IMG/VR virus record: IMGVR_UViG_3300023184_000031
Coordinates: 106,256-170,255 of that record
Strand: one strand, 5' to 3'
Origin: a virus
Lineage: Duplodnaviria; Heunggongvirae; Uroviricota; Caudoviricetes
DNA length: 64,000 nucleotides
Position 1 is the stretch's first letter. Each line of letters opens with the position of its first letter. Below, piece by piece: positions 2,789 to 62,783 of the stretch. The translations under genes were made by a program, and so were the position numbers. The notes beneath the pieces were generated by a model. The model saw nothing but the letters and a program-made list of their open reading frames with translations. It did not search any database and was not told the origin of the DNA.

Positions 2789-3475
2789 ATGACTAGTATA
2801 TACGCTTTATCAAAAGAAAATTATATATTCTATATAGGAAAAACAATTAATGTACATAGTAGATTATATGAACATAAACAAAAGTATGGATCTAATATAG
2901 AAATAATAATATTAGATGAAGTAGAAGATAATAAATGGATGTTTTGGGAAAAATATTATATTTCATTGTTTAAAAGTTGGGGTTACATCTTAAAAAATAA
3001 AAATGATGGTGGTGGTGGAACAACACGAGGTACACTCCAAAAATCTCAAAAACTAAAAAAATCAAAACATAAACCTATTTTGCAATATGATTTACAAGGT
3101 AACTTTATTAGAGAATGGGAAAGTAGTAAACAAGTAGCGGACGAATTACAATTAACTAATTCTAGTGGAATAACTTCAGTTTTAAAAAACCATAGTCCTA
3201 CTGCTTATAAAAGCATATGGAAATATAAAACAGAAAATTATCCGTTTAAAATAAATCCTCCTCAATATTGGGAAAATAATTTAATACCTGTACTTCAATA
3301 TGATTTGCAAGGTAATCTAATAAAAGAATGGAGGAGCGGCAAAGAAGCTTCCTTATATTTAAATATAAATAAACAAAGCATATGCAATACTCTAAAAAAC
3401 AGAGCAAAGTCAGCATGTGGATATGTTTGGAAATATAAAAAAAGGAGGCATTATCTACCAGTCAATTTATTATGA
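2789..3475 (+). mobile_element. Free-standing GIY-YIG homing endonuclease with two NUMOD/IENR-like DNA-binding repeats.
   Basis: N-terminal 'IYALSKENYIFYIGKTINVHSRLYEHK' is a GIY-x10-YIG motif. Two C-terminal repeats 'ILQYDLQGNxIxEWxSxK' follow. The 3' end overlaps the DNA polymerase ORF start by ~59 nt. Confidence 0.8.
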
Positions 3476-7853: not shown

Positions 7854-8024
7854 ATGGAAAACATTATTGTAGAAATTAAAGTAACAAATGAAAAAGGAAA
7901 AAGCGACACAGTTTCATTTCCTTATGATGTTTATGTTGGTATGAAAGAAAATAATAACATAAATATGGTAGATGATTTATTAAGTGGTTTAATTGAAAAA
8001 CTAAAACAAAAAGATAAAAAATGA
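7854..8024 (+). CDS. Small hypothetical protein, 56 aa.
   Basis: ORF MENIIVEIKVTNEKGKSDTV... Its TGA stop overlaps the groEL ATG (ATGA), suggesting translational coupling. Below the ORF-track size cut-off. Confidence 0.35.
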   Translation: MENIIVEIKVTNEKGKSDTVSFPYDVYVGMKENNNINMVDDLLSGLIEKLKQKDKK

Positions 8025-9655
8025 GTAAAATAATCAGTTTTAACAGAGATGCTAAAGAAAAATTGAAAGTCGGTATTGACAAGGTCAATAACGCAGTATC
8101 AGTAACAATGGGACCATTTGGTCGTAACGTATTGATTGAAAAAGAACACGGACAAGTAATATCAACTAAAGATGGTGTTACAGTAGCTAAAACAGTAGTA
8201 TTGGAAGATCCAATCGAAAACATGGCCGCTACCGTAATTAAACAAGCAGCAGAAAAAACAGTAGATGCAGCCGGTGATGGTACAACAACATCAACAGTAT
8301 TAGCACATTCAATTGCAACACAAGCATTAGAGGCAACATCGTATGCATCAACAAATGCAACGCAAGTAAAGAAAGGCATTGAATCAGCTGTAAAAACAGT
8401 AGTAGCAGAATTAAAAAGAATGTCTGTTCCGGTATCTGATGAAACACAAATCAGACAGATTGCTACATTATCCGCTAACGGCGATGCTGAAATTGGTGAA
8501 TTAGTAGCCACAGCTATTGATAAAGTAGGAAGAGATGGAGTAGTAACAGTAGAAGAGTCGCGTACTGGGGAAACTAGTTTAGAAGTAGTAGAGGGTATGC
8601 AGTTTGAAAGAGGATATAAGTCACCATACATGGTTACAGACAACAATACCATGACAGCAGTATTGGATAATCCATTATTATTGCTTGTAGATGGTAGAGT
8701 ATCTTCTATTAAGGAATTATTGCCTTTACTTGAAGCAGTATCACAAGAAAATAAATCATTATTGATTGTAGCTGAAGATATTGAAGGGGAAGCATTAGCA
8801 GCATTGATTGTAAATAAAATGAGAGGTATTTTGAAGGTAGCTGCTGTTAAAGCACCTGACTTTGGAGAACGTAGAACATTAATTTTGGAAGATATTGCAA
8901 CGCTAACAGGTGGAACAGTAGTATCACACCAAAAAGGTATGAAGCTAGATAAATTCAATAAAGATTGGTTCGGTGAAGCTCGTACTGTAACAGTAGGTAA
9001 AGATACAACTACTATTGTTGATGGTAAAGGTGAAACTACAGCTATTGAATCTCGTATTATGGAATTAAAATCACAAATCGACAATTCAAATTCACCATAC
9101 GAAATTGAAAAGCTACAAGAGCGCTTATCTAAAATGATTGGTGGAGTAGCTATTATCAATGTAGGTGGTGGAACAGAGATCGAAATGAAAGAGAAGAAAG
9201 ACAGATTGGATGATGCTTTACAAGCAACTAAAGCTGCTCTTGATGAAGGTATCTTACCAGGTGCTGGTGTAGCATTATTACATGCTAGAGAAGCTATTAG
9301 CTATATTAAAACAGATGGTGAAGACTTTAATAAAGGTAAACGTATCGTACAAAATGCATGTATGTCTCCATTTGCACAAATTCTAACTAACGCTGGTGAA
9401 AATCACTATGAGTGGTTAATGCAATTGAAAGACCATAATGAAGATTCATCTTTAGTACCTAATATTGAAGAAGAAATATTAACAGACGCTTATACCTCAG
9501 GTATCATCGATCCAACTAAAGTAGTACGTTCAGCACTTGAAAATGCAGCTGCAGCCGCAGTAACATTACTAATGACTGAATGCGTAATATATGAAAAACC
9601 ATCTGATAAGAAAGCAGACGCTGGAATGGATATGATGGGTGGAATGGGAATGTAA
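8021..9655 (+). CDS. groEL: Chaperonin GroEL (Cpn60).
   Basis: 'AAGDGTTTSTVLA'. 'GGGTEIEMKEKKDRLDDAL'. C-terminal 'GMDMMGGMGM' tail. 544 aa. Confidence 0.92.
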   Translation: MSKIISFNRDAKEKLKVGIDKVNNAVSVTMGPFGRNVLIEKEHGQVISTKDGVTVAKTVVLEDPIENMAATVIKQAAEKTVDAAGDGTTTSTVLAHSIATQALEATSYASTNATQVKKGIESAVKTVVAELKRMSVPVSDETQIRQIATLSANGDAEIGELVATAIDKVGRDGVVTVEESRTGETSLEVVEGMQFERGYKSPYMVTDNNTMTAVLDNPLLLLVDGRVSSIKELLPLLEAVSQENKSLLIVAEDIEGEALAALIVNKMRGILKVAAVKAPDFGERRTLILEDIATLTGGTVVSHQKGMKLDKFNKDWFGEARTVTVGKDTTTIVDGKGETTAIESRIMELKSQIDNSNSPYEIEKLQERLSKMIGGVAIINVGGGTEIEMKEKKDRLDDALQATKAALDEGILPGAGVALLHAREAISYIKTDGEDFNKGKRIVQNACMSPFAQILTNAGENHYEWLMQLKDHNEDSSLVPNIEEEILTDAYTSGIIDPTKVVRSALENAAAAAVTLLMTECVIYEKPSDKKADAGMDMMGGMGM

Positions 9656-33895: not shown

Positions 33896-34435
33896 ATGTC
33901 TTCTCCAAAAAAATCAACAAAACCAACGGGTCGAATCATGTCATTAGGTGATATAGAAATAGACAACGTTAATGAAATAATAGAAGTTATATACGAAATC
34001 AACGAAGAAGATGCGAAAAAAACGCAAAAAGAACCAATAAAGCTAATAGTCAACTCACCTGGTGGAGATGTTTATCATGGATTTGCCTTAGTTGATGTCA
34101 TTTCAAACTCGCAGACTCCAATCCATACAATATGTCATGGCCACGCCATGTCAGCAGCACTAATAGTGTACGCCGCTGGTCATAAACGATTTGCAAGTCA
34201 ACGTGCCACATTTATGTACCATGAAATGTCATGGCTAACACAACAAGAAAAACTACAATATCATCTACAAGAAGCAAAAGAGGGAGAACGAATGTGGAAA
34301 ATATATGATGATTACTTACTTTCCCGTACGAAATTCACAGCAAAACAATTGAATGAGGTTAAAGATAGACGTGGAGAGTGGTATATGGATGTAAAAGTAG
34401 CACATAAATATGGGCTAGTAGACGAAATTTTATAA
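33896..34435 (+). CDS. ClpP-family serine protease.
   Basis: 'IKLIVNSPGGDV'. 'GHAMSAALIV' (Ser). 'FMYHE' (His). Confidence 0.7.
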   Translation: MSSPKKSTKPTGRIMSLGDIEIDNVNEIIEVIYEINEEDAKKTQKEPIKLIVNSPGGDVYHGFALVDVISNSQTPIHTICHGHAMSAALIVYAAGHKRFASQRATFMYHEMSWLTQQEKLQYHLQEAKEGERMWKIYDDYLLSRTKFTAKQLNEVKDRRGEWYMDVKVAHKYGLVDEIL

Positions 34436-35864: not shown

Positions 35865-36467
35865 ATGCCAGCAGCCAAACATCTTACCAAAACACAGATT
35901 GAAACGGCAATGCGCTATACGAAATCAGTTCGTGCCGCTGCCCGATATTTAGGTTGCTCATATCAACATCTTAAGCCGTTTATGAAAGCGCTTAGAGTGG
36001 ATGATAATGATCCAAATTCCCCAACATTATTTGATGCTCACAAGAATCAAAGTGGCAAGGCCATCCCTAAGTTCCTACCCAATAGACGTAAAGAACCTCA
36101 TGTAACACGAATATTCACAGAGGGTACTGGGTATGAATCATTTACAACAGAAAAAATACGAATTAGAGGCATCGCTGAAGGATTCTTGAGAGATGAATGC
36201 TATATGTGTGGCTTTAGTGAACGTAGAGTAACTGATTATAAGGTTCCATTATTAATGAACTTTAAAGATGGTAGTAAATGTAATTATCTATTAGATAACC
36301 TTGAACTATTATGTTATAATTGCTACTTCCTATACGTTGGTGAAGTATTAACACCAGACCAAATTCGCGACGTTGAAACAAATCAAACCACTAAAACTAA
36401 ATCGTTTGAGTGGGATTTAGATGATGATCAATTAGATAACATGCGCGCATTGGGCTTAATAGATTGA
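35865..36467 (+). CDS. HTH-like N-terminus with Cys-rich C-terminal domain protein.
   Basis: 'SVRAAARYLGCSYQHL'. 'CYMCGF...C...CYNCY'. Confidence 0.45.
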   Translation: MPAAKHLTKTQIETAMRYTKSVRAAARYLGCSYQHLKPFMKALRVDDNDPNSPTLFDAHKNQSGKAIPKFLPNRRKEPHVTRIFTEGTGYESFTTEKIRIRGIAEGFLRDECYMCGFSERRVTDYKVPLLMNFKDGSKCNYLLDNLELLCYNCYFLYVGEVLTPDQIRDVETNQTTKTKSFEWDLDDDQLDNMRALGLID

Positions 36468-36791: not shown

Positions 36792-37004
36792 ATGGCACAG
36801 TTTTTCCAAGTTAAGGTTCAATTCACTGTTGAAGACAGTAAAGGTAAAGTAAAAAAACAAAACGTATTATATCTAGTAGACGCAATGTCAGTGACTGAAG
36901 CTGAAGCTAGAATGGTACAGCATCTAACAGAGCAAGGTGAAAATGAGTTTGAGGTTAAAGCGGCTTCCGAATCGCCAATTGCGTCTGTAGTTGTAGGTAA
37001 GTAA
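36792..37004 (+). CDS. Hypothetical protein.
   Basis: ORF. Confidence 0.4.
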   Translation: MAQFFQVKVQFTVEDSKGKVKKQNVLYLVDAMSVTEAEARMVQHLTEQGENEFEVKAASESPIASVVVGK

Positions 37005-37008
37005 TTAC

Positions 37009-37079
37009 TGTGATATGATGTAACGGTAACATTACAGATTTTGATTCTGTCCTTCCTGGTTCGAATCCAGGTGTCACAT
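37009..37079 (+). tRNA. tRNA-Gln(TTG).
   Basis: Acceptor tgtgata/tgtcaca. D-arm atgt-aacggta-acat. Anticodon stem acaga/tctgt with loop ttTTGat. T-arm cctgg-ttcgaat-ccagg. No CCA encoded. Confidence 0.75.
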
Positions 37080-37084
37080 CTAAT

Positions 37085-37187
37085 AGTCAGGTGGCAGAGT
37101 GGACGAATGCTAACTAGGAAGAGTCTGAGGGGTGATAACCTGGTATCGATACCCTGATGACCGCAGGTTCGAATCCTGTCCTGACTA
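37085..37187 (+). tRNA. Atypical ~103 nt class-II (Ser-type) tRNA-like gene with an enlarged central region.
   Basis: Perfect 7-bp acceptor agtcagg/cctgact. Ser-like D-arm 'tggcagagtggacgaatgc'. T-arm gcagg-ttcgaat-cctgt. The only central stem I can draw (ctagg/cctgg) encloses ~20 nt rather than a 7-nt anticodon loop. Confidence 0.45.
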
Positions 37188-37311: not shown

Positions 37312-37384
37312 GCAGCCTTAGACGAGCGGTTAAGTCGTCTCCCTTTCACGGAGAAGATCATGGGTTCGAATCCCATAGGTTGTA
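37312..37384 (+). tRNA. tRNA-Glu(TTC).
   Basis: Acceptor gcagcct/aggttgt (with G-U pairs). Anticodon stem tctcc/ggaga with loop ctTTCac. T-arm atggg-ttcgaat-cccat. Confidence 0.65.
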
Positions 37385-37411
37385 CTTGTTTTCGAACCCT
37401 TTATATATTTA

Positions 37412-37816
37412 TTGCAAATGAATAATATGAAAATTTGTAGTAAATGTAAACAGGAAAAAGAATTAATTGAATTCAATAAACATCGCTATGGAGTTACATC
37501 ATGGTGCAAAGAATGTGTTAGAAGTAGAAGTAAACAACACTATGAAGAAAATGGTATATCTTTAAAAGAGAAGAAAAAACTATACATTCAGCAACGAAGA
37601 GAGTGGTTTAATGAATTTAAAAAAACATTAAAATGTATTAAATGTGGTGAAAACCATATAGCGTGTTTAGACTTTCATCACCGTGATCCTAAACAAAAAG
37701 AATTTAGTATTGCTGGGGCTGTAAGCCATTCAAACAAAGAAAAAGTGATTAAGGAATTAGAAAAATGTGATGTTTTATGTGCTAATTGCCATAGGAAGCA
37801 TCATTACGAAGAATAA
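37412..37816 (+). mobile_element. HNH homing endonuclease.
   Basis: N-terminal 'CSKCKQ...WCKECV' zinc finger. 'LDFHHRDPKQK...NKEKVIKELEKCDVLCANCHRKHH' HNH motif. Lies between tRNA and tmRNA genes. Confidence 0.8.
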
Positions 37817-38144: not shown

Positions 38145-38150
38145 AATATG

Positions 38151-38588
38151 GGGGTGCCTTGGAATTGCTCCGAATCAAAGGGTAGTATTACATGTAGTGA
38201 GATGGTTCTAACTCACTTAAATCAATGGGCAAACAATTAAACGACAACTCTGAATTATCAGATTGGACCTTCGATGATGCTATGGCATTCATTGGAGCTG
38301 ACGAGTACGCTTTAGCGGCCTAGTCACCGGGGCAGCTGATAGCCTTGCAACAGAACAGCAGCGAGTCGTACGCTACAGAGACGGCATCCGGACGCATATT
38401 GTGAGCCGTGGCAAACCGTTTTTCCTGTTTTCTCAAAACATGATGGTGGAGCCGGTGATTATCACTGGTTAGTTCCCTACGGTGCAGAATGTGTTTGGGA
38501 TCTTTCCAGCACAAACAGTACTAAACATGTGAGACGTTAGTATTATTGCTTTTTTACGGAAACACGGGTTCGACTCCCGTCACCTCCA
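38151..38588 (+). ncRNA. ssrA: tmRNA (ssrA), complete, with tag reading frame ...GADEYALAA*.
   Basis: 5' GGGGGTG pairs with 3' CACCTCC+A as a 7-bp acceptor stem. T-arm acggg-ttcgact-cccgt. Internal ORF 'gga gct gac gag tac gct tta gcg gcc tag' translates to GADEYALAA-stop (38294-38323). Followed by a terminator. Confidence 0.8.
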
Positions 38589-38597
38589 CACTCAAGG

Positions 38598-38622
38598 CAA
38601 CCAGAAATGGTTGTCTTTTTTT
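38598..38622 (+). terminator. Rho-independent terminator.
   Basis: 'caacca-gaaa-tggttg' hairpin followed by 'tcttttttt'. Confidence 0.7.
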
Positions 38623-57350: not shown

Positions 57351-57616
57351 AGATTTTGATTTTTGGTTATAATAGATGGGTAGGGCAAAATGCTCTACCT
57401 ATCTTTATTTCAAATAAAAAAGTTATGAGTATAAAATTAATACAAACAGAAACAACATTTGATGTTGAATATAATGAACAAACATATAGTGTTACAATGT
57501 TAGAAGATAGTGTTAGTTTAGGTTATACACAATATGATGTGTATAATGAAGAGGGTGAATTAGTTGAAGGTGATTTAGAAGAAGAAATAATCAACTACTT
57601 AGAAGAAAATATCTAA
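57338..57616 (+). CDS. Hypothetical protein.
   Basis: ORF. Confidence 0.4.
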   Translation: MGKIKILIFGYNRWVGQNALPIFISNKKVMSIKLIQTETTFDVEYNEQTYSVTMLEDSVSLGYTQYDVYNEEGELVEGDLEEEIINYLEENI

Positions 57617-57663
57617 GGCACAATTTCAGTCGTATATTCACGTTAACCAAAAATAAATAAGTT

Positions 57664-58713: not shown

Positions 58714-58929
58714 ATGGAATTTAAAAACGAAGACGAACTAAAACAATACATCAAACGCGTACTAGAAGAAGGTGATATATCGCCTGGTTATATTGATAAC
58801 TATATTGACTGTATAATGGCTTATAGCTCAGTAGAAGATTATGTTGGTGTAACAGACGAAGCGGTTTGGGGTGATTTTAGTGATTGGATGGATGATGATA
58901 TTGATTGGAAGGCAAAGCAACAATGGTAG
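58714..58929 (+). CDS. Acidic hypothetical protein.
   Basis: ORF. Confidence 0.4.
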   Translation: MEFKNEDELKQYIKRVLEEGDISPGYIDNYIDCIMAYSSVEDYVGVTDEAVWGDFSDWMDDDIDWKAKQQW

Positions 58930-59141
58930 ATTCACATTATAAAATAAAAGTTATGATAGTAAAAATTAATTTGACAATATTAATAGTTTTAGCGATTCTC
59001 GCATGTGGGAGTGGAATAATGCTGAATGTAGATGAAAAAAGAGAAGAATTTTGGCTTAAAACCGGTCAGACTCTTCTTGCATTAATGTTTATAGAATGCG
59101 CAGTGTGGTTACTAATATCAATATGGACAGATCAAATATAG
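58905..59141 (+). CDS. Small membrane protein.
   Basis: Two hydrophobic helices. Confidence 0.4.
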   Translation: MEGKATMVDSHYKIKVMIVKINLTILIVLAILACGSGIMLNVDEKREEFWLKTGQTLLALMFIECAVWLLISIWTDQI

Positions 59142-59254
59142 TTAGATGGCGAAATAGAGTAGACGCACCGTGCCGAAAGCCCCCGCAACAAAGAACGGCA
59201 ATACGGAGAGAGCATTGGGCGACTTTCATACAGGTTCAAGTCCTGTTCTAACTA
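59140..59254 (+). tRNA. Atypical ~115 nt class-II (Leu-type) tRNA-like gene with an enlarged central region.
   Basis: Acceptor agttaga/tctaact. Leu-like D-arm 'tggcgaaatagagtagacgc'. T-arm acagg-ttcaagt-cctgt. The central stem ccgtgccg/cggc..tacgg encloses ~20 nt; no canonical 7-nt anticodon loop found. Confidence 0.4.
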
Positions 59255-59269
59255 CTAAAAATAAATGTT

Positions 59270-59560
59270 ATGCAAAGTATTTACAAATCACCACTAGGAC
59301 TCTCAGTCGAAAAGTATGATTGGGATAAAAACTTCACCATTACAGGTAAGTTATTCAAATCAATGACAATGAAGGAATTTGATTCTGCTTATGATGTAGA
59401 AGATTTCATTCAAGCAAAAATTAACTGTAAAGGAATAGATTTTGATAGTGAATATTGTCAATTCTTTGCATACGCCAAAACTAAAAACCGAGCAATGACG
59501 TTTGTTAAGGAAATAGAAGATTATTTCGCTAAGGTAAGAGAGATGTTGTCGGCAAAATAA
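59270..59560 (+). CDS. Hypothetical protein.
   Basis: ORF. Confidence 0.45.
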   Translation: MQSIYKSPLGLSVEKYDWDKNFTITGKLFKSMTMKEFDSAYDVEDFIQAKINCKGIDFDSEYCQFFAYAKTKNRAMTFVKEIEDYFAKVREMLSAK

Positions 59561-59611
59561 AAATCGTACATTCACGTTATACAAATAATTAAAAACCAAA
59601 AACAAATAGTT

Positions 59612-60483: not shown

Positions 60484-60741
60484 ATGGCAGAATTCAGTAA
60501 ACAATTTTGTGAAATAAAAGACATGGGTTTTGATGGTGATTTTGATGTATATGAAGAATGGTCTAAGTTAACACCCGGCTACGCAGTAGCTTATATATGC
60601 GAAGGATTTGGTTTCAGTATGATTGGTAAGAAAGAATCAAGTGATGAAGTGTTTGTGTATATGCATGATTGGGATAATCCTGAGAATGGTAAATGGGTTA
60701 ATTTTGATGATTTGGTTTTGAAGGCAAAATCCAATTCGTAG
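60484..60741 (+). CDS. Hypothetical protein.
   Basis: ORF. Confidence 0.4.
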   Translation: MAEFSKQFCEIKDMGFDGDFDVYEEWSKLTPGYAVAYICEGFGFSMIGKKESSDEVFVYMHDWDNPENGKWVNFDDLVLKAKSNS

Positions 60742-60768
60742 ATTCACGTTAACCAAAAATAAATAATT

Positions 60769-62624: not shown

Positions 62625-62750
62625 ATGAGCTTCAAACAAGAATTAATAAAATTATTATCAGAGGATTGTATAGAAATGGGATTTATAATTTATATAGCGG
62701 CAGTTGTAACTCTTATAGCTATAAGGCAACGAGATAAGGCACAACAATAG
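62625..62750 (+). CDS. Tiny TM protein, 41 aa.
   Basis: 'MSFKQELIKLLSEDCIEMGFIIYIAAVVTLIAI'. The promoter motif sits just upstream, so the listed start at 62523 is unlikely. Confidence 0.3.
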   Translation: MSFKQELIKLLSEDCIEMGFIIYIAAVVTLIAIRQRDKAQQ

Positions 62751-62783
62751 TCGTATATTCACATTAACCAAAAATAATTAGTT

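Follow-up and report, generated by a model that had tools for sequence, protein, structure and literature searches.

The stretch analysed here, hereafter the window, comprises 64,000 nucleotides (nt) of phage DNA (positions 106,256 to 170,255 of IMG/VR virus record IMGVR_UViG_3300023184_000031, Caudoviricetes), with nearly all genes encoded on the + strand. It carries two genes, C1 and C2, for RNAs that resemble transfer RNA (tRNA) in their acceptor stem, D-arm and T-arm, and that have a long non-canonical centre in place of the anticodon arm. C1 sits in a tRNA islet between tRNA-Gln and tRNA-Glu, and C2 between two small open reading frames (ORFs), where the stop codon of the upstream ORF (TAG, 59139-59141) overlaps C2 nt 1-2 and the next ATG (59270) follows 15 nt downstream. 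Other phage contigs hold homologues of both elements, and the two genes belong to a family of viral RNA genes described below, in which a conserved tRNA-like frame, the chassis, surrounds a variable centre, the cargo.

Two tRNA-like genes with non-canonical centres

The initial annotation had placed over-long tRNA-like genes at 37085-37187 and 59140-59254, with perfect 7-bp acceptors, canonical T-arms, a Ser-type D-arm in C1 and a Leu-type D-arm in C2, in a phage context, and each of these features is borne out by reading the sequence and by the Rfam tRNA model on those coordinates (Table 1). Across the whole window, default ARAGORN and Rfam at the gathering threshold called only the tRNA-Gln(UUG) and tRNA-Glu(UUC) of the islet, to which Rfam added a transfer-messenger RNA (tmRNA, 38150-38591); C1 and C2 were not called, and Rfam still missed them at E<=10 on stretches of 300-500 nt. 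When the elements were searched alone, they did match the Rfam tRNA model (RF00005; gathering score 29) because the filters are then laxer, with 30.8 bits for C1 and 34.8 bits for C2 and with ends exactly at the positions given above. These alignments jump over the anticodon arm, spanning 47 nt against 18 model positions in C1 and 31 nt against 9 in C2. Among canonical tRNA features, both elements have a 7-bp acceptor with discriminator, a D-arm with U8, A14 and G18G19, a T-arm of the form GTTCRANYC and a 7/5 branch configuration (acceptor/T-stem), and C1 has a possible Levitt pair between G15 (37099) and C48 (37162); neither has a 5-bp anticodon stem, a 7-nt loop with U33 or a length of ~70-95 nt. 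C1 is flanked by U at -1 (37084) and C at +1 (37188). With 51.5% (C1) and 49.6% (C2) G+C against a window mean of 31.6 +/- 6.1%, both rank in the top 0.2-0.3% of 103-nt windows.

Table 1. Positions and supporting evidence of C1, C2, their structural parts and their immediate surroundings in the window.
Feature	Positions	Strand	Evidence or remarks
tRNA islet with C1	37009-37385	+	tRNA-Gln(UUG) 37009-37080, 4-nt spacer, C1, 124 nt, tRNA-Glu(UUC) 37312-37385
C1, tRNA-like RNA gene without decoding capacity, 103 nt	37085-37187	+	Sequence, Rfam tRNA model, 21 homologues, covariation
C1 acceptor 5' strand AGUCAGG	37085-37091	+	Pairs with CCUGACU 37180-37186, 7/7 Watson-Crick; A73 = 37187
C1 U8, G9 and Ser-like D-arm GCA-GAGTGGACGAA-TGC	37092-37110	+	Stem 37094-96 / 37108-10, G18G19 in loop
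C1 segment a CUAGG	37114-37118	+	In the place of the anticodon-stem 5' strand; pairs with apical loop CCUGG 37139-37143, giving a pseudoknot
C1 cargo hairpin	37123-37161	+	Covariation; minimum free energy (MFE) fold finds the same hairpin
C1 outer helix GUC/GAC	37123-25 / 37159-61	+	Three Watson-Crick pairs; invariant
C1 internal loop UGA/GAU	37126-28 / 37156-58	+	Invariant; read as tandem G.A plus U.U
C1 helix b GGGGU/ACCCU	37129-33 / 37151-55	+	G-C<->A-U in 6/13 sequences
C1 helix c GAUA/UAUC (window copy)	37134-37 / 37144-47	+	GGUA/UACC elsewhere; G-C<->A-U
C1 apical loop, 6 nt	37138-43	+	Five bases pair with segment a
C1 bulge, 3 nt	37148-50	+	Between helices b and c
C1 T-arm GCAGG-UUCGAAU-CCUGU	37163-37179	+	Sequence, alignment
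C2 transcription-unit context	58910-59560	+	Promoter-like repeat 58910-58949; unit bracketed by repeat copies
C2, tRNA-like RNA gene without decoding capacity, 115 nt	59140-59254	+	Rfam tRNA model, homologues at loci L179 and L342
C2 acceptor AGUUAGA/UCUAACU	59140-46 / 59247-53	+	7/7 pairs; A73 = 59254
C2 Leu-type D-arm GCG-AAATAGAGTAGA-CGC	59149-59166	+	Sequence
C2 cargo domain	59168-59228	+	55.6% G+C, top 0.05% of windows
C2 T-arm ACAGG-UUCAAGU-CCUGU	59230-59246	+	Sequence; U48 = 59229

Searches of viral and metagenome contigs with a pattern that left the acceptor free (AGTCTGA...GTG...CTGATGAC...GGTTC) yielded 21 distinct C1-type sequences after trimming, from many samples. Parsed by structure, the C1 centre runs from the D-arm through UAA and segment a (CUAGG) into a hairpin whose apical loop pairs back with segment a. 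This pseudoknot is paired at five of five positions in 21 of 21 sequences, across the segment a variants CUAGG, CUUGG, CUAUG, UUAGG and GCAGG. Among the 13 gap-free sequences, which are related to one another, 99.3% of cells are paired. Both partners have changed in 9 pairs, a number reached by none of 500 shuffles (3.3 +/- 1.1 such pairs), and controls that slide the partners of the helices show 27-48% pairing. Covariation is limited to a single pair in several helices, and the outer helix is invariant. In the same 13 sequences the acceptor helix is 100% paired with 4 of its 7 pairs changed on both sides, and the pseudoknot helix 100% paired with two pairs so changed. Acceptors as different as ACAAGAG/CUCUUGU, GUUCCGG/UCGGAAC, AGUCCUG/CGGGACU and AGCCGGU/ACCGGCU all remain paired, and the invariant unpaired or non-canonical bases AGUCUGA and GAUGACC persist across five different acceptor stems. 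Covariation thus supports a predicted pseudoknotted hairpin with an invariant tandem G.A loop as the C1 centre, and this cargo domain is most likely a protein- or RNA-binding module. The stems closing ~20-nt loops that the initial annotation had described in both elements can indeed be drawn; in C1, however, covariation indicates that the apparent loop is one strand of the hairpin and the supposed variable arm the other.

Known motifs were also considered for the CUGA...CUGAUGA bases of C1. A box C/D (K-turn) reading was rejected, as CUGA faces UGAUGA but no 3-nt bulge lies beside the G.A pairs; the best box C/D model in Rfam (sR5) gave 8.3 bits against a gathering score of 40. Hammerhead, pistol, HDV (hepatitis delta virus)-like and K-turn readings were set aside as misfits after inspection by eye against the features of their consensus structures.

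For C2, two folds can be proposed. One combines an anticodon-stem-like helix, CCGU-GCCG / CGGC-(AAU)-ACGG around a 20-nt loop (59176-95), with a hairpin GAGAG/CUUUC (59208-12 / 59223-27), and the other pairs GAAAG (59175-79) with the same CUUUC (59223-27). Covariation does not discriminate between them, since the search recovered no homologues other than near-identical ones: the close homologues at loci L179 and L342 have centres that differ by one base, together with compensated acceptor changes (the forms observed are AGTTAGA/TCTAACT, AGTTAGG/CCTAACT and AGTTAGG/CCTGACT). One pattern scan for more distant homologues returned none, and another returned two near-identical copies plus one unrelated sequence.

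Membership, conservation and turnover of the family

Family membership was examined in an unbiased set of 80 loci of relatives, chosen by a neighbouring protein of 165 amino acids (aa) and hence independently of RNA features. All seven over-long ARAGORN calls in these loci carried an AGTCAGG, TGTCAGG or TGTCAAG acceptor, against 0 of 90 ordinary tRNAs. Four had the AGTCAGG acceptor and shared both acceptor and T-arm/acceptor 3' strand with C1, combined with a tRNA-Leu-type D-arm and centres unrelated to that of C1, while the true tRNA-Leu genes of the same phages have an acceptor other than that of the chassis. A scan of IMG/VR with the 3'-chassis pattern GGTTCRARTCCTGTYCTRACTA extended the collection to at least 120 viral stretches and at least 163 distinct sequences, 54-191 nt long. 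The family chassis consists of the acceptor AGUCAGG/CCUGACU with A73, the T-arm ACAGG-UUCGAAU-CCUGU and usually a tRNA-Leu-type D-arm, whose strict pattern is matched by ~60 of 169 members. We define the family by an acceptor (A/G)GU(C/U)AG(G/A) with its complement and A73, a T-arm (A/G)CAGG-UUCRARU-CCUGU, U at -1, C at +1 and a non-canonical centre; C1 conforms exactly, and C2 does so through the compensated pairs U4-A69 and A7-U66, with the L179 and L342 elements as intermediates.

The centres range from ~5 to 140 nt and form 136 clusters from 156 sequences, with no motif shared among them by 6-mer enrichment. Several copies per contig are common, and locus L182 holds about nine among five true tRNAs within 3.3 kb. 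A few members combine the same chassis with canonical-looking anticodon arms, namely a 72-nt Lys-UUU (L224) and an Ile-UAU (L260, second of a tandem pair), and the family thus forms a continuum between tRNA-like and grossly expanded members. The body of the L260 Ile element is otherwise the same as that of the normal phage tRNA-Ile of L182, which has a different acceptor, as if acceptor stems had been grafted onto tRNA bodies. Given that the anticodon arm is replaced, we expect members not to read codons and to have some other job.

Across the family, acceptor and T stems covary, and their mismatches to strict Watson-Crick pairing are strand-specific, with 89 G.U against 10 A.C; this argues for selection on the RNA of the gene strand, unlike what is expected of a double-stranded DNA site. 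Positions of the tRNA tertiary core are likewise retained, with U8 in 162 and A14 in 143 of 169 members, G18G19 and the T-loop kept, and position 15/48 covarying between A-U (111) and G-C (23, mostly C1 type). The flanks resemble those of 228 distinct ordinary tRNAs from the same loci, both for U at -1 (82% of the family vs 71%) and for C after the discriminator (98% vs 97%), and neighbouring tRNA or tRNA-like genes within 500 nt lie on the same strand as the member in 121 of 121 cases. The centres are richer in G+C than their flanks (41.5% vs 36.7%, Wilcoxon p = 2e-9) and fold somewhat more stably than shuffles (mean z-score -0.66, p = 2e-9), and several further subfamilies contain compensatory changes by eye, for example GUUGAA/UUCAAC vs GAGCAA/UUGCUC.

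When the flanks of each member were compared with all collected loci, three loci (L240, L335 and L329) were found to be ~99% identical from the upstream through the downstream tRNA, and to contain between AGTCAGGTGG and ACAGGTTCGAATCC three unrelated centres, of 139 nt, 99 nt (C1-type) and 94 nt, respectively. Two further loci with 83-90% identical flanks also differ in their centres, one of them holding a tandem pair, and the comparison across all members revealed no empty insertion site. Conversely, the C1-type element of the window is 88% identical to that of L182, a locus with no other detectable DNA similarity to the window. As different centres lie between identical ends, the constant ends serve, in practice at least, as points of exchange. 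The HNH endonuclease genes flanking the islet would fit homing-assisted exchange, although this is speculation. These replacements suggest that cargo turnover is rapid and under diversifying selection, for instance in host takeover or counter-defence, and argue for a role that is conflict-related or host-specific.

The family was absent from 50,697 GenBank phage records, where blastn of the family consensus returned generic T-arm matches only. No isolate genome contained the chassis in a collection of one genome per species (185,579 species), where it occurred in only 24 stretches, all from contigs of metagenome-assembled genomes (MAGs), and it is therefore not copied from a host tRNA. About half of these 24 stretches are labelled Bacteroidota (Chitinophagia/Chitinophagaceae, Sediminibacterium, Flavobacterium, Saprospiraceae and others). 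The phages that carry the family are uncultivated, and their hosts are probably freshwater Bacteroidota. The family turned up in none of the exact-sequence and keyword searches of the searchable literature; unspecified "tRNA or tRNA-like" candidates appear in one large screen of IMG/VR (PMC10690425). While tRNA-like non-coding RNAs are known in general, a single chassis with many exchangeable cargos is apparently undescribed.

Two other groups of unusual tRNA-like genes were encountered. A further subfamily of 157-161 nt with acceptor UGUCAGG/CCUGACA (UGUCAAG in L106) is conserved in relatives, adjoins tRNA-Leu and the tmRNA, and is absent from the window (L097 1712-1872, L106 2487-2646, L124 4857-5013). 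Odd Ser-type tRNA-like genes with different acceptors occur on unrelated viral contigs (L041 7980-8070, L055 3073-3162, L029 1807-1887, L028 3398-3469, L021 5890-5962), with anticodon loops that are apparently non-canonical, by eye, or with very long central regions. Expanded tRNA-like genes may thus be more widespread among viruses.

Interpretation, rival explanations and known relatives

We interpret C1 and C2 as non-decoding tRNA-like RNAs of a phage-specific family that combines one chassis with changing cargos, and give this reading a probability of about 0.6; that the two elements exist, are conserved and do not decode is far better established than anything said on function. The chassis consists of an acceptor/T-arm minihelix (nearly always AGUCAGG...ACAGG-UUCGAAU-CCUGU-CCUGACU-A) and a class-II D-arm that keeps the tRNA elbow. 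Recognition by RNase P, RNase Z and the CCA-adding enzyme depends on such a helix and elbow, through which RNase P, tRNA 3'-end enzymes and the CCA-adding enzyme would excise and mature the RNA from tRNA or mRNA co-transcripts, the chassis also stabilising the product. The anticodon and variable arms give way to a lineage-specific structured cargo, which would carry the specific activity and is swapped among near-identical phages through the constant chassis ends. Many members may in addition be leucylated. The leucyl-tRNA synthetase (LeuRS) of E. coli requires A73 and tertiary contacts between D- and T-loops, and can dispense with the anticodon and variable arms (PMC9976931). Since the chassis keeps A73, U8-A14, A15-U48, G18G19 and the D/T-loop contacts, and only the LeuRS-dispensable arms vary, leucine charging is a possibility, by analogy, for Leu-type members such as C2.

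Several points weigh against this reading. Leucylation fits C1 less well, its D-arm being Ser-like with A73. No partner protein was found, and the window proteins scanned include neither an RNA ligase nor a CCA-adding enzyme. In the window and 15 rich loci, no centre matched any Rfam family save the tRNA model. The fixed 3'-chassis pattern used to collect members introduces an ascertainment bias that the unbiased sets offset only in part, and the chassis could also owe its near-invariant sequence to DNA-level recombination or recent spread and not to a sequence-specific RNA partner. The C2 cargo has near-identical homologues only, so that its fold and selection on it can be proposed only tentatively. 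Lastly, complementarity of the C1 and C2 centres to the 64-kb window extends to 10-11 nt at most, within the shuffled expectation, and we therefore reject an antisense regulator of the phage's own genes. The initial annotation had listed a tRNA-like regulatory RNA among its options; tRNA-like RNA was the right class, while a regulatory role is conjectural. That both elements share a chassis within one large family could not be seen from the window sequence alone.

The main rival holds that the chassis is processing punctuation of the kind provided by t-elements, which only directs RNase P and RNase Z cuts in polycistronic transcripts, with the centre as self-folding filler. The tight fit of C2 between two cistrons is what this would predict, as is a constant set of RNase P and RNase Z recognition elements next to a hypervariable remainder; among 125 evaluable members, 38 have a same-strand ORF end <=30 nt upstream, 42 an ORF start <=50 nt downstream, and 42% are solitary, and plant mitochondria offer a precedent (PMC1920247). 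We nevertheless regard it as unlikely, because the C1 centre retains invariant AGUCUGA and GAUGACC and its pseudoknot over five acceptor stems, because 44% of members lie in tRNA arrays where true tRNAs already supply cleavage sites, and because filler should shrink and turn A+T-rich, whereas the centres reach 140 nt and are G+C-enriched. Excision of a chassis with its cargo would cut the mRNA in any case, so that the two explanations are partly compatible. Alternatively, the constant ends could be sites of recombination or homing, or a small mobile cassette could have them as its terminal inverted repeats, with tRNA likeness a mere ancestral trait. Cargo replacement with breakpoints within the constant ends of ~99% identical loci, the 88% identity of C1-type elements in otherwise dissimilar phages, HNH genes either side of the C1 islet and an 8-bp inverted repeat at the ends (TAGTCAGG...CCTGACTA) all speak for such a DNA-level element. 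What makes it quite unlikely as the whole explanation is the excess of G.U over A.C in the stems, the retention of tRNA tertiary positions (U8, A14, G18G19, R15-Y48, T-loop), flank signals that are the same as in real tRNAs, the constant gene orientation and the lack of empty sites; recombination through the ends can, moreover, coexist with an RNA function. The activity could also reside in the chassis itself, members being chargeable decoys or regulators that titrate or are charged by LeuRS, or that soak up a host factor or toxin attacking acceptor ends, while the cargo only modulates. Retention of the E. coli LeuRS identity set with variation confined to leucylation-dispensable arms, the many copies per genome, and an acceptor/T-arm found in no host genome among the 185,579 species, MAG contigs excepted, would suit this proposal. 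It is distinctly unlikely all the same, as it leaves conserved structured cargos such as that of C1 unexplained, the C1 D-arm is Ser-like, the strict Leu D-arm pattern is confined to about a third of the members (~60/169), and the LeuRS rules applied are those of E. coli and may not hold for Bacteroidota.

Two further options of the initial annotation, degenerate tRNAs and tRNAs with intervening sequences, fared worse. Decaying pseudo-tRNAs, that is duplicated genes with drifting anticodon regions and ends homogenised by gene conversion, would account for hypervariable centres without a shared motif, for multi-copy arrays that could support gene conversion, and for whole-element MFE z-scores that are unremarkable (-0.56 for C1, -0.32 for C2). 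This is very improbable given that the C1 centre is conserved with compensatory changes over 21 distinct sequences, that the C2 centre is held nearly constant in L179 and L342 though the acceptor changes, that centres are G+C-rich in A+T-rich genomes, that chassis variants are mostly wobble-compatible and that loci are always occupied. Removal of a short intervening sequence to yield functional Ser/Leu-type or other tRNAs might be suggested by ARAGORN, whose default mode calls neither element and whose intron mode calls both, and by the few same-chassis members with canonical anticodon arms (Lys-UUU, Ile-UAU). The calls themselves, however, are a Tyr(AUA) whose 15-nt intron would lie at 33/34 and an Ala(GGC) whose 22-nt intron would lie at 36/37. 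These positions, which are not the canonical 37/38, are implausible, and so are the identities on class-II bodies. In the residual loops U33 is missing and the sequence varies from one homologue to another, with no conserved 7-nt loop, and the C1 "intron" bases covary with "variable-arm" bases. The excess of ~13-30 nt is far below the size of a group I intron (~200 nt or more), no Rfam intron family matches, and a tRNA-splicing (bulge-helix-bulge) endonuclease of archaeal or eukaryotic type is not known in bacteria. We consider this explanation extremely improbable.

Within the chassis-and-cargo reading, a more specific model can be put forward tentatively, as a natural form of tRNA-scaffold display: a universal, phage-specific and probably leucylatable chassis would express, process and stabilise structured RNA effectors that are exchanged fast and that may, as aptamer-like binders or decoys for instance, act in host takeover or counter-defence, and cassettes would be shuffled between co-infecting phages via the chassis ends, possibly helped by the homing endonucleases flanking the islet. 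If expressed, the family would be a natural version of the tRNA scaffold used by engineers, a new class of effector RNAs in abundant phages of freshwater Bacteroidota, and a test bed for anticodon-independent charging with LeuRS as candidate enzyme. For annotation, the consequence is that default tRNA finders miss the family and intron mode mislabels its members as intron-containing tRNAs with spurious anticodons.

Among known systems, the engineered tRNA scaffold for recombinant RNA expression, reportedly introduced by Ponchon and Dardel in 2007, has an identical architecture: a structured RNA replaces the anticodon stem-loop, and acceptor, D and T arms secure processing and stability. It is a laboratory design (reviewed in PMC10155629), of which the family would be the natural counterpart, with the long-variable-arm region also replaced. 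tmRNA likewise keeps the acceptor/T-arm mimic, is processed by tRNA enzymes and replaces the anticodon arm by a large pseudoknotted insert, but C1 and C2 pair U3:A70 and not G3:U70, have a complete D-arm and a much shorter insert, and lack a tag reading frame; ARAGORN -m found no tmRNA in either, and the Rfam tmRNA model gave 7.1 bits, over the T-arm only, against a gathering score of 47. The RNAs C and D of phage T4 are small stable non-tRNA RNAs of its tRNA gene cluster whose role is still unknown (PMC3014915). They resemble our elements as small non-tRNA RNAs co-oriented with tRNAs in a phage with a T4-like replication module, and C1 shares their location; in contrast to these two fixed RNAs, the family is multi-copy with exchangeable centres on one chassis, and the blastn search of phage records gave no family match to rnaC or rnaD.

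The t-elements of plant mitochondria are non-decoding tRNA-like structures that lie beside coding regions and signal cleavage by RNase P/Z (PMC1920247), and the intercistronic position of C2 and the tRNA-like -1 U / +1 C flanks fit this description, cleavage by RNase P/Z itself being a prediction. Unlike these degenerate relics without conserved cargo, the family has structured, subfamily-conserved and exchanged centres, many of them in tRNA arrays. YrlA, a bacterial Y-RNA-like RNA, is similarly modular and joins a tRNA-like module to another functional one (PMC4201824); there, however, the tRNA-like part lies inside the molecule, the helix that binds Ro/Rsr is made by the termini and the genes are linked to rsr, whereas the window proteins scanned include no Rsr and Rfam gave no Y-RNA hit. 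Allo-tRNAs share class-II (Ser/Leu-like) bodies from metagenomes and phages, an unusual architecture and an anticodon-independent identity (PMC5389517), and differ by 8/4 or 9/3 acceptor/T branches and a normal anticodon loop, against 7/5 and no anticodon loop in C1 and C2. Overall, the two elements fall outside the definitions of tmRNA, T4 RNA C/D, allo-tRNA, box C/D RNA and intron-containing tRNA. tRNA mimicry has so far been known as single cases, such as tmRNA, viral 3' tRNA-like structures, Y-RNA-like RNAs (PMC4201824) and t-elements (PMC1920247), in contrast to the >100 structured centres found here on a single chassis, with several per genome and turnover even between near-identical phages.

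Genomic surroundings and other features of the window

The proteins encoded in the window include a family-B DNA polymerase, a gp44-like clamp loader, a GroEL-like chaperonin, ClpP and a long sugar-biosynthesis cluster, and DNA similarity to isolated phages is limited to weak matches with Flavobacterium myophages. HNH endonuclease genes lie on both sides of the tRNA-Gln/C1/tRNA-Glu islet (35865-36467 and 37412-37816), and a GIY-YIG/NUMOD1 endonuclease gene (2789-3475) abuts the DNA polymerase gene; a part for these endonucleases as drivers of islet or cassette exchange is possible. No + strand terminator was found from the islet up to 38594, that is, before the one that follows the tmRNA.

This phage tmRNA (Rfam 52.8 bits) was missed by ARAGORN and lies ~1 kb downstream of C1. 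Its tag ORF (38243-38323) encodes a 26-aa tag, DNSELSDWTFDDAMAFIGADEYALAA, and the tmRNA gene is followed by a terminator (38594-38617); tmRNAs of relatives have tags of 23-26 aa ending in ALAA, AVAA or, once, ATFA. Together with the ClpP gene a few kb upstream (33896-34435), it suggests a phage-run tagging and proteolysis module.

Directly upstream of the islet, as also in the relatives where this was checked (L106 and L093), a 70-aa protein (36792-37004) matches only the N-terminal half of DUF4494 / phrog_19572. Its length is 65-80 aa in relatives, and since the 70-aa length is held in all of them, the idea that the tRNA islet had split a DUF4494 gene was ruled out. As a possible RNA-binding partner it had no relative in the PDB, and its single-sequence AlphaFold model was poor (predicted local distance difference test score, pLDDT, 56).

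The region around C2 contains at least 15 copies, between 54789 and 63984, of an intergenic motif of ~40-50 nt, (A/T)GGCA-N12-GUAnAUUCAC-N-UUAACCAAAAA, for example at 57616-57655, 58910-58949, 59550-59589, 60722-60761 and 62737-62776. Many copies lie ~45 nt upstream of the ATG of a small ORF, and the motif is probably a phage-specific promoter or leader of an early small-gene region.

Elsewhere, the GroEL-like chaperonin is encoded at 8021-9655 (Cpn60_TCP1, E = 9e-65). A run of sugar and glycan genes between 13361 and 33870, of a size unusual for a phage, comprises glycosyltransferases, guanosine diphosphate (GDP)-mannose dehydratase and epimerases, a DegT aminotransferase, a thiamine pyrophosphate (TPP) enzyme, a nucleotidyltransferase and an FkbM methyltransferase.

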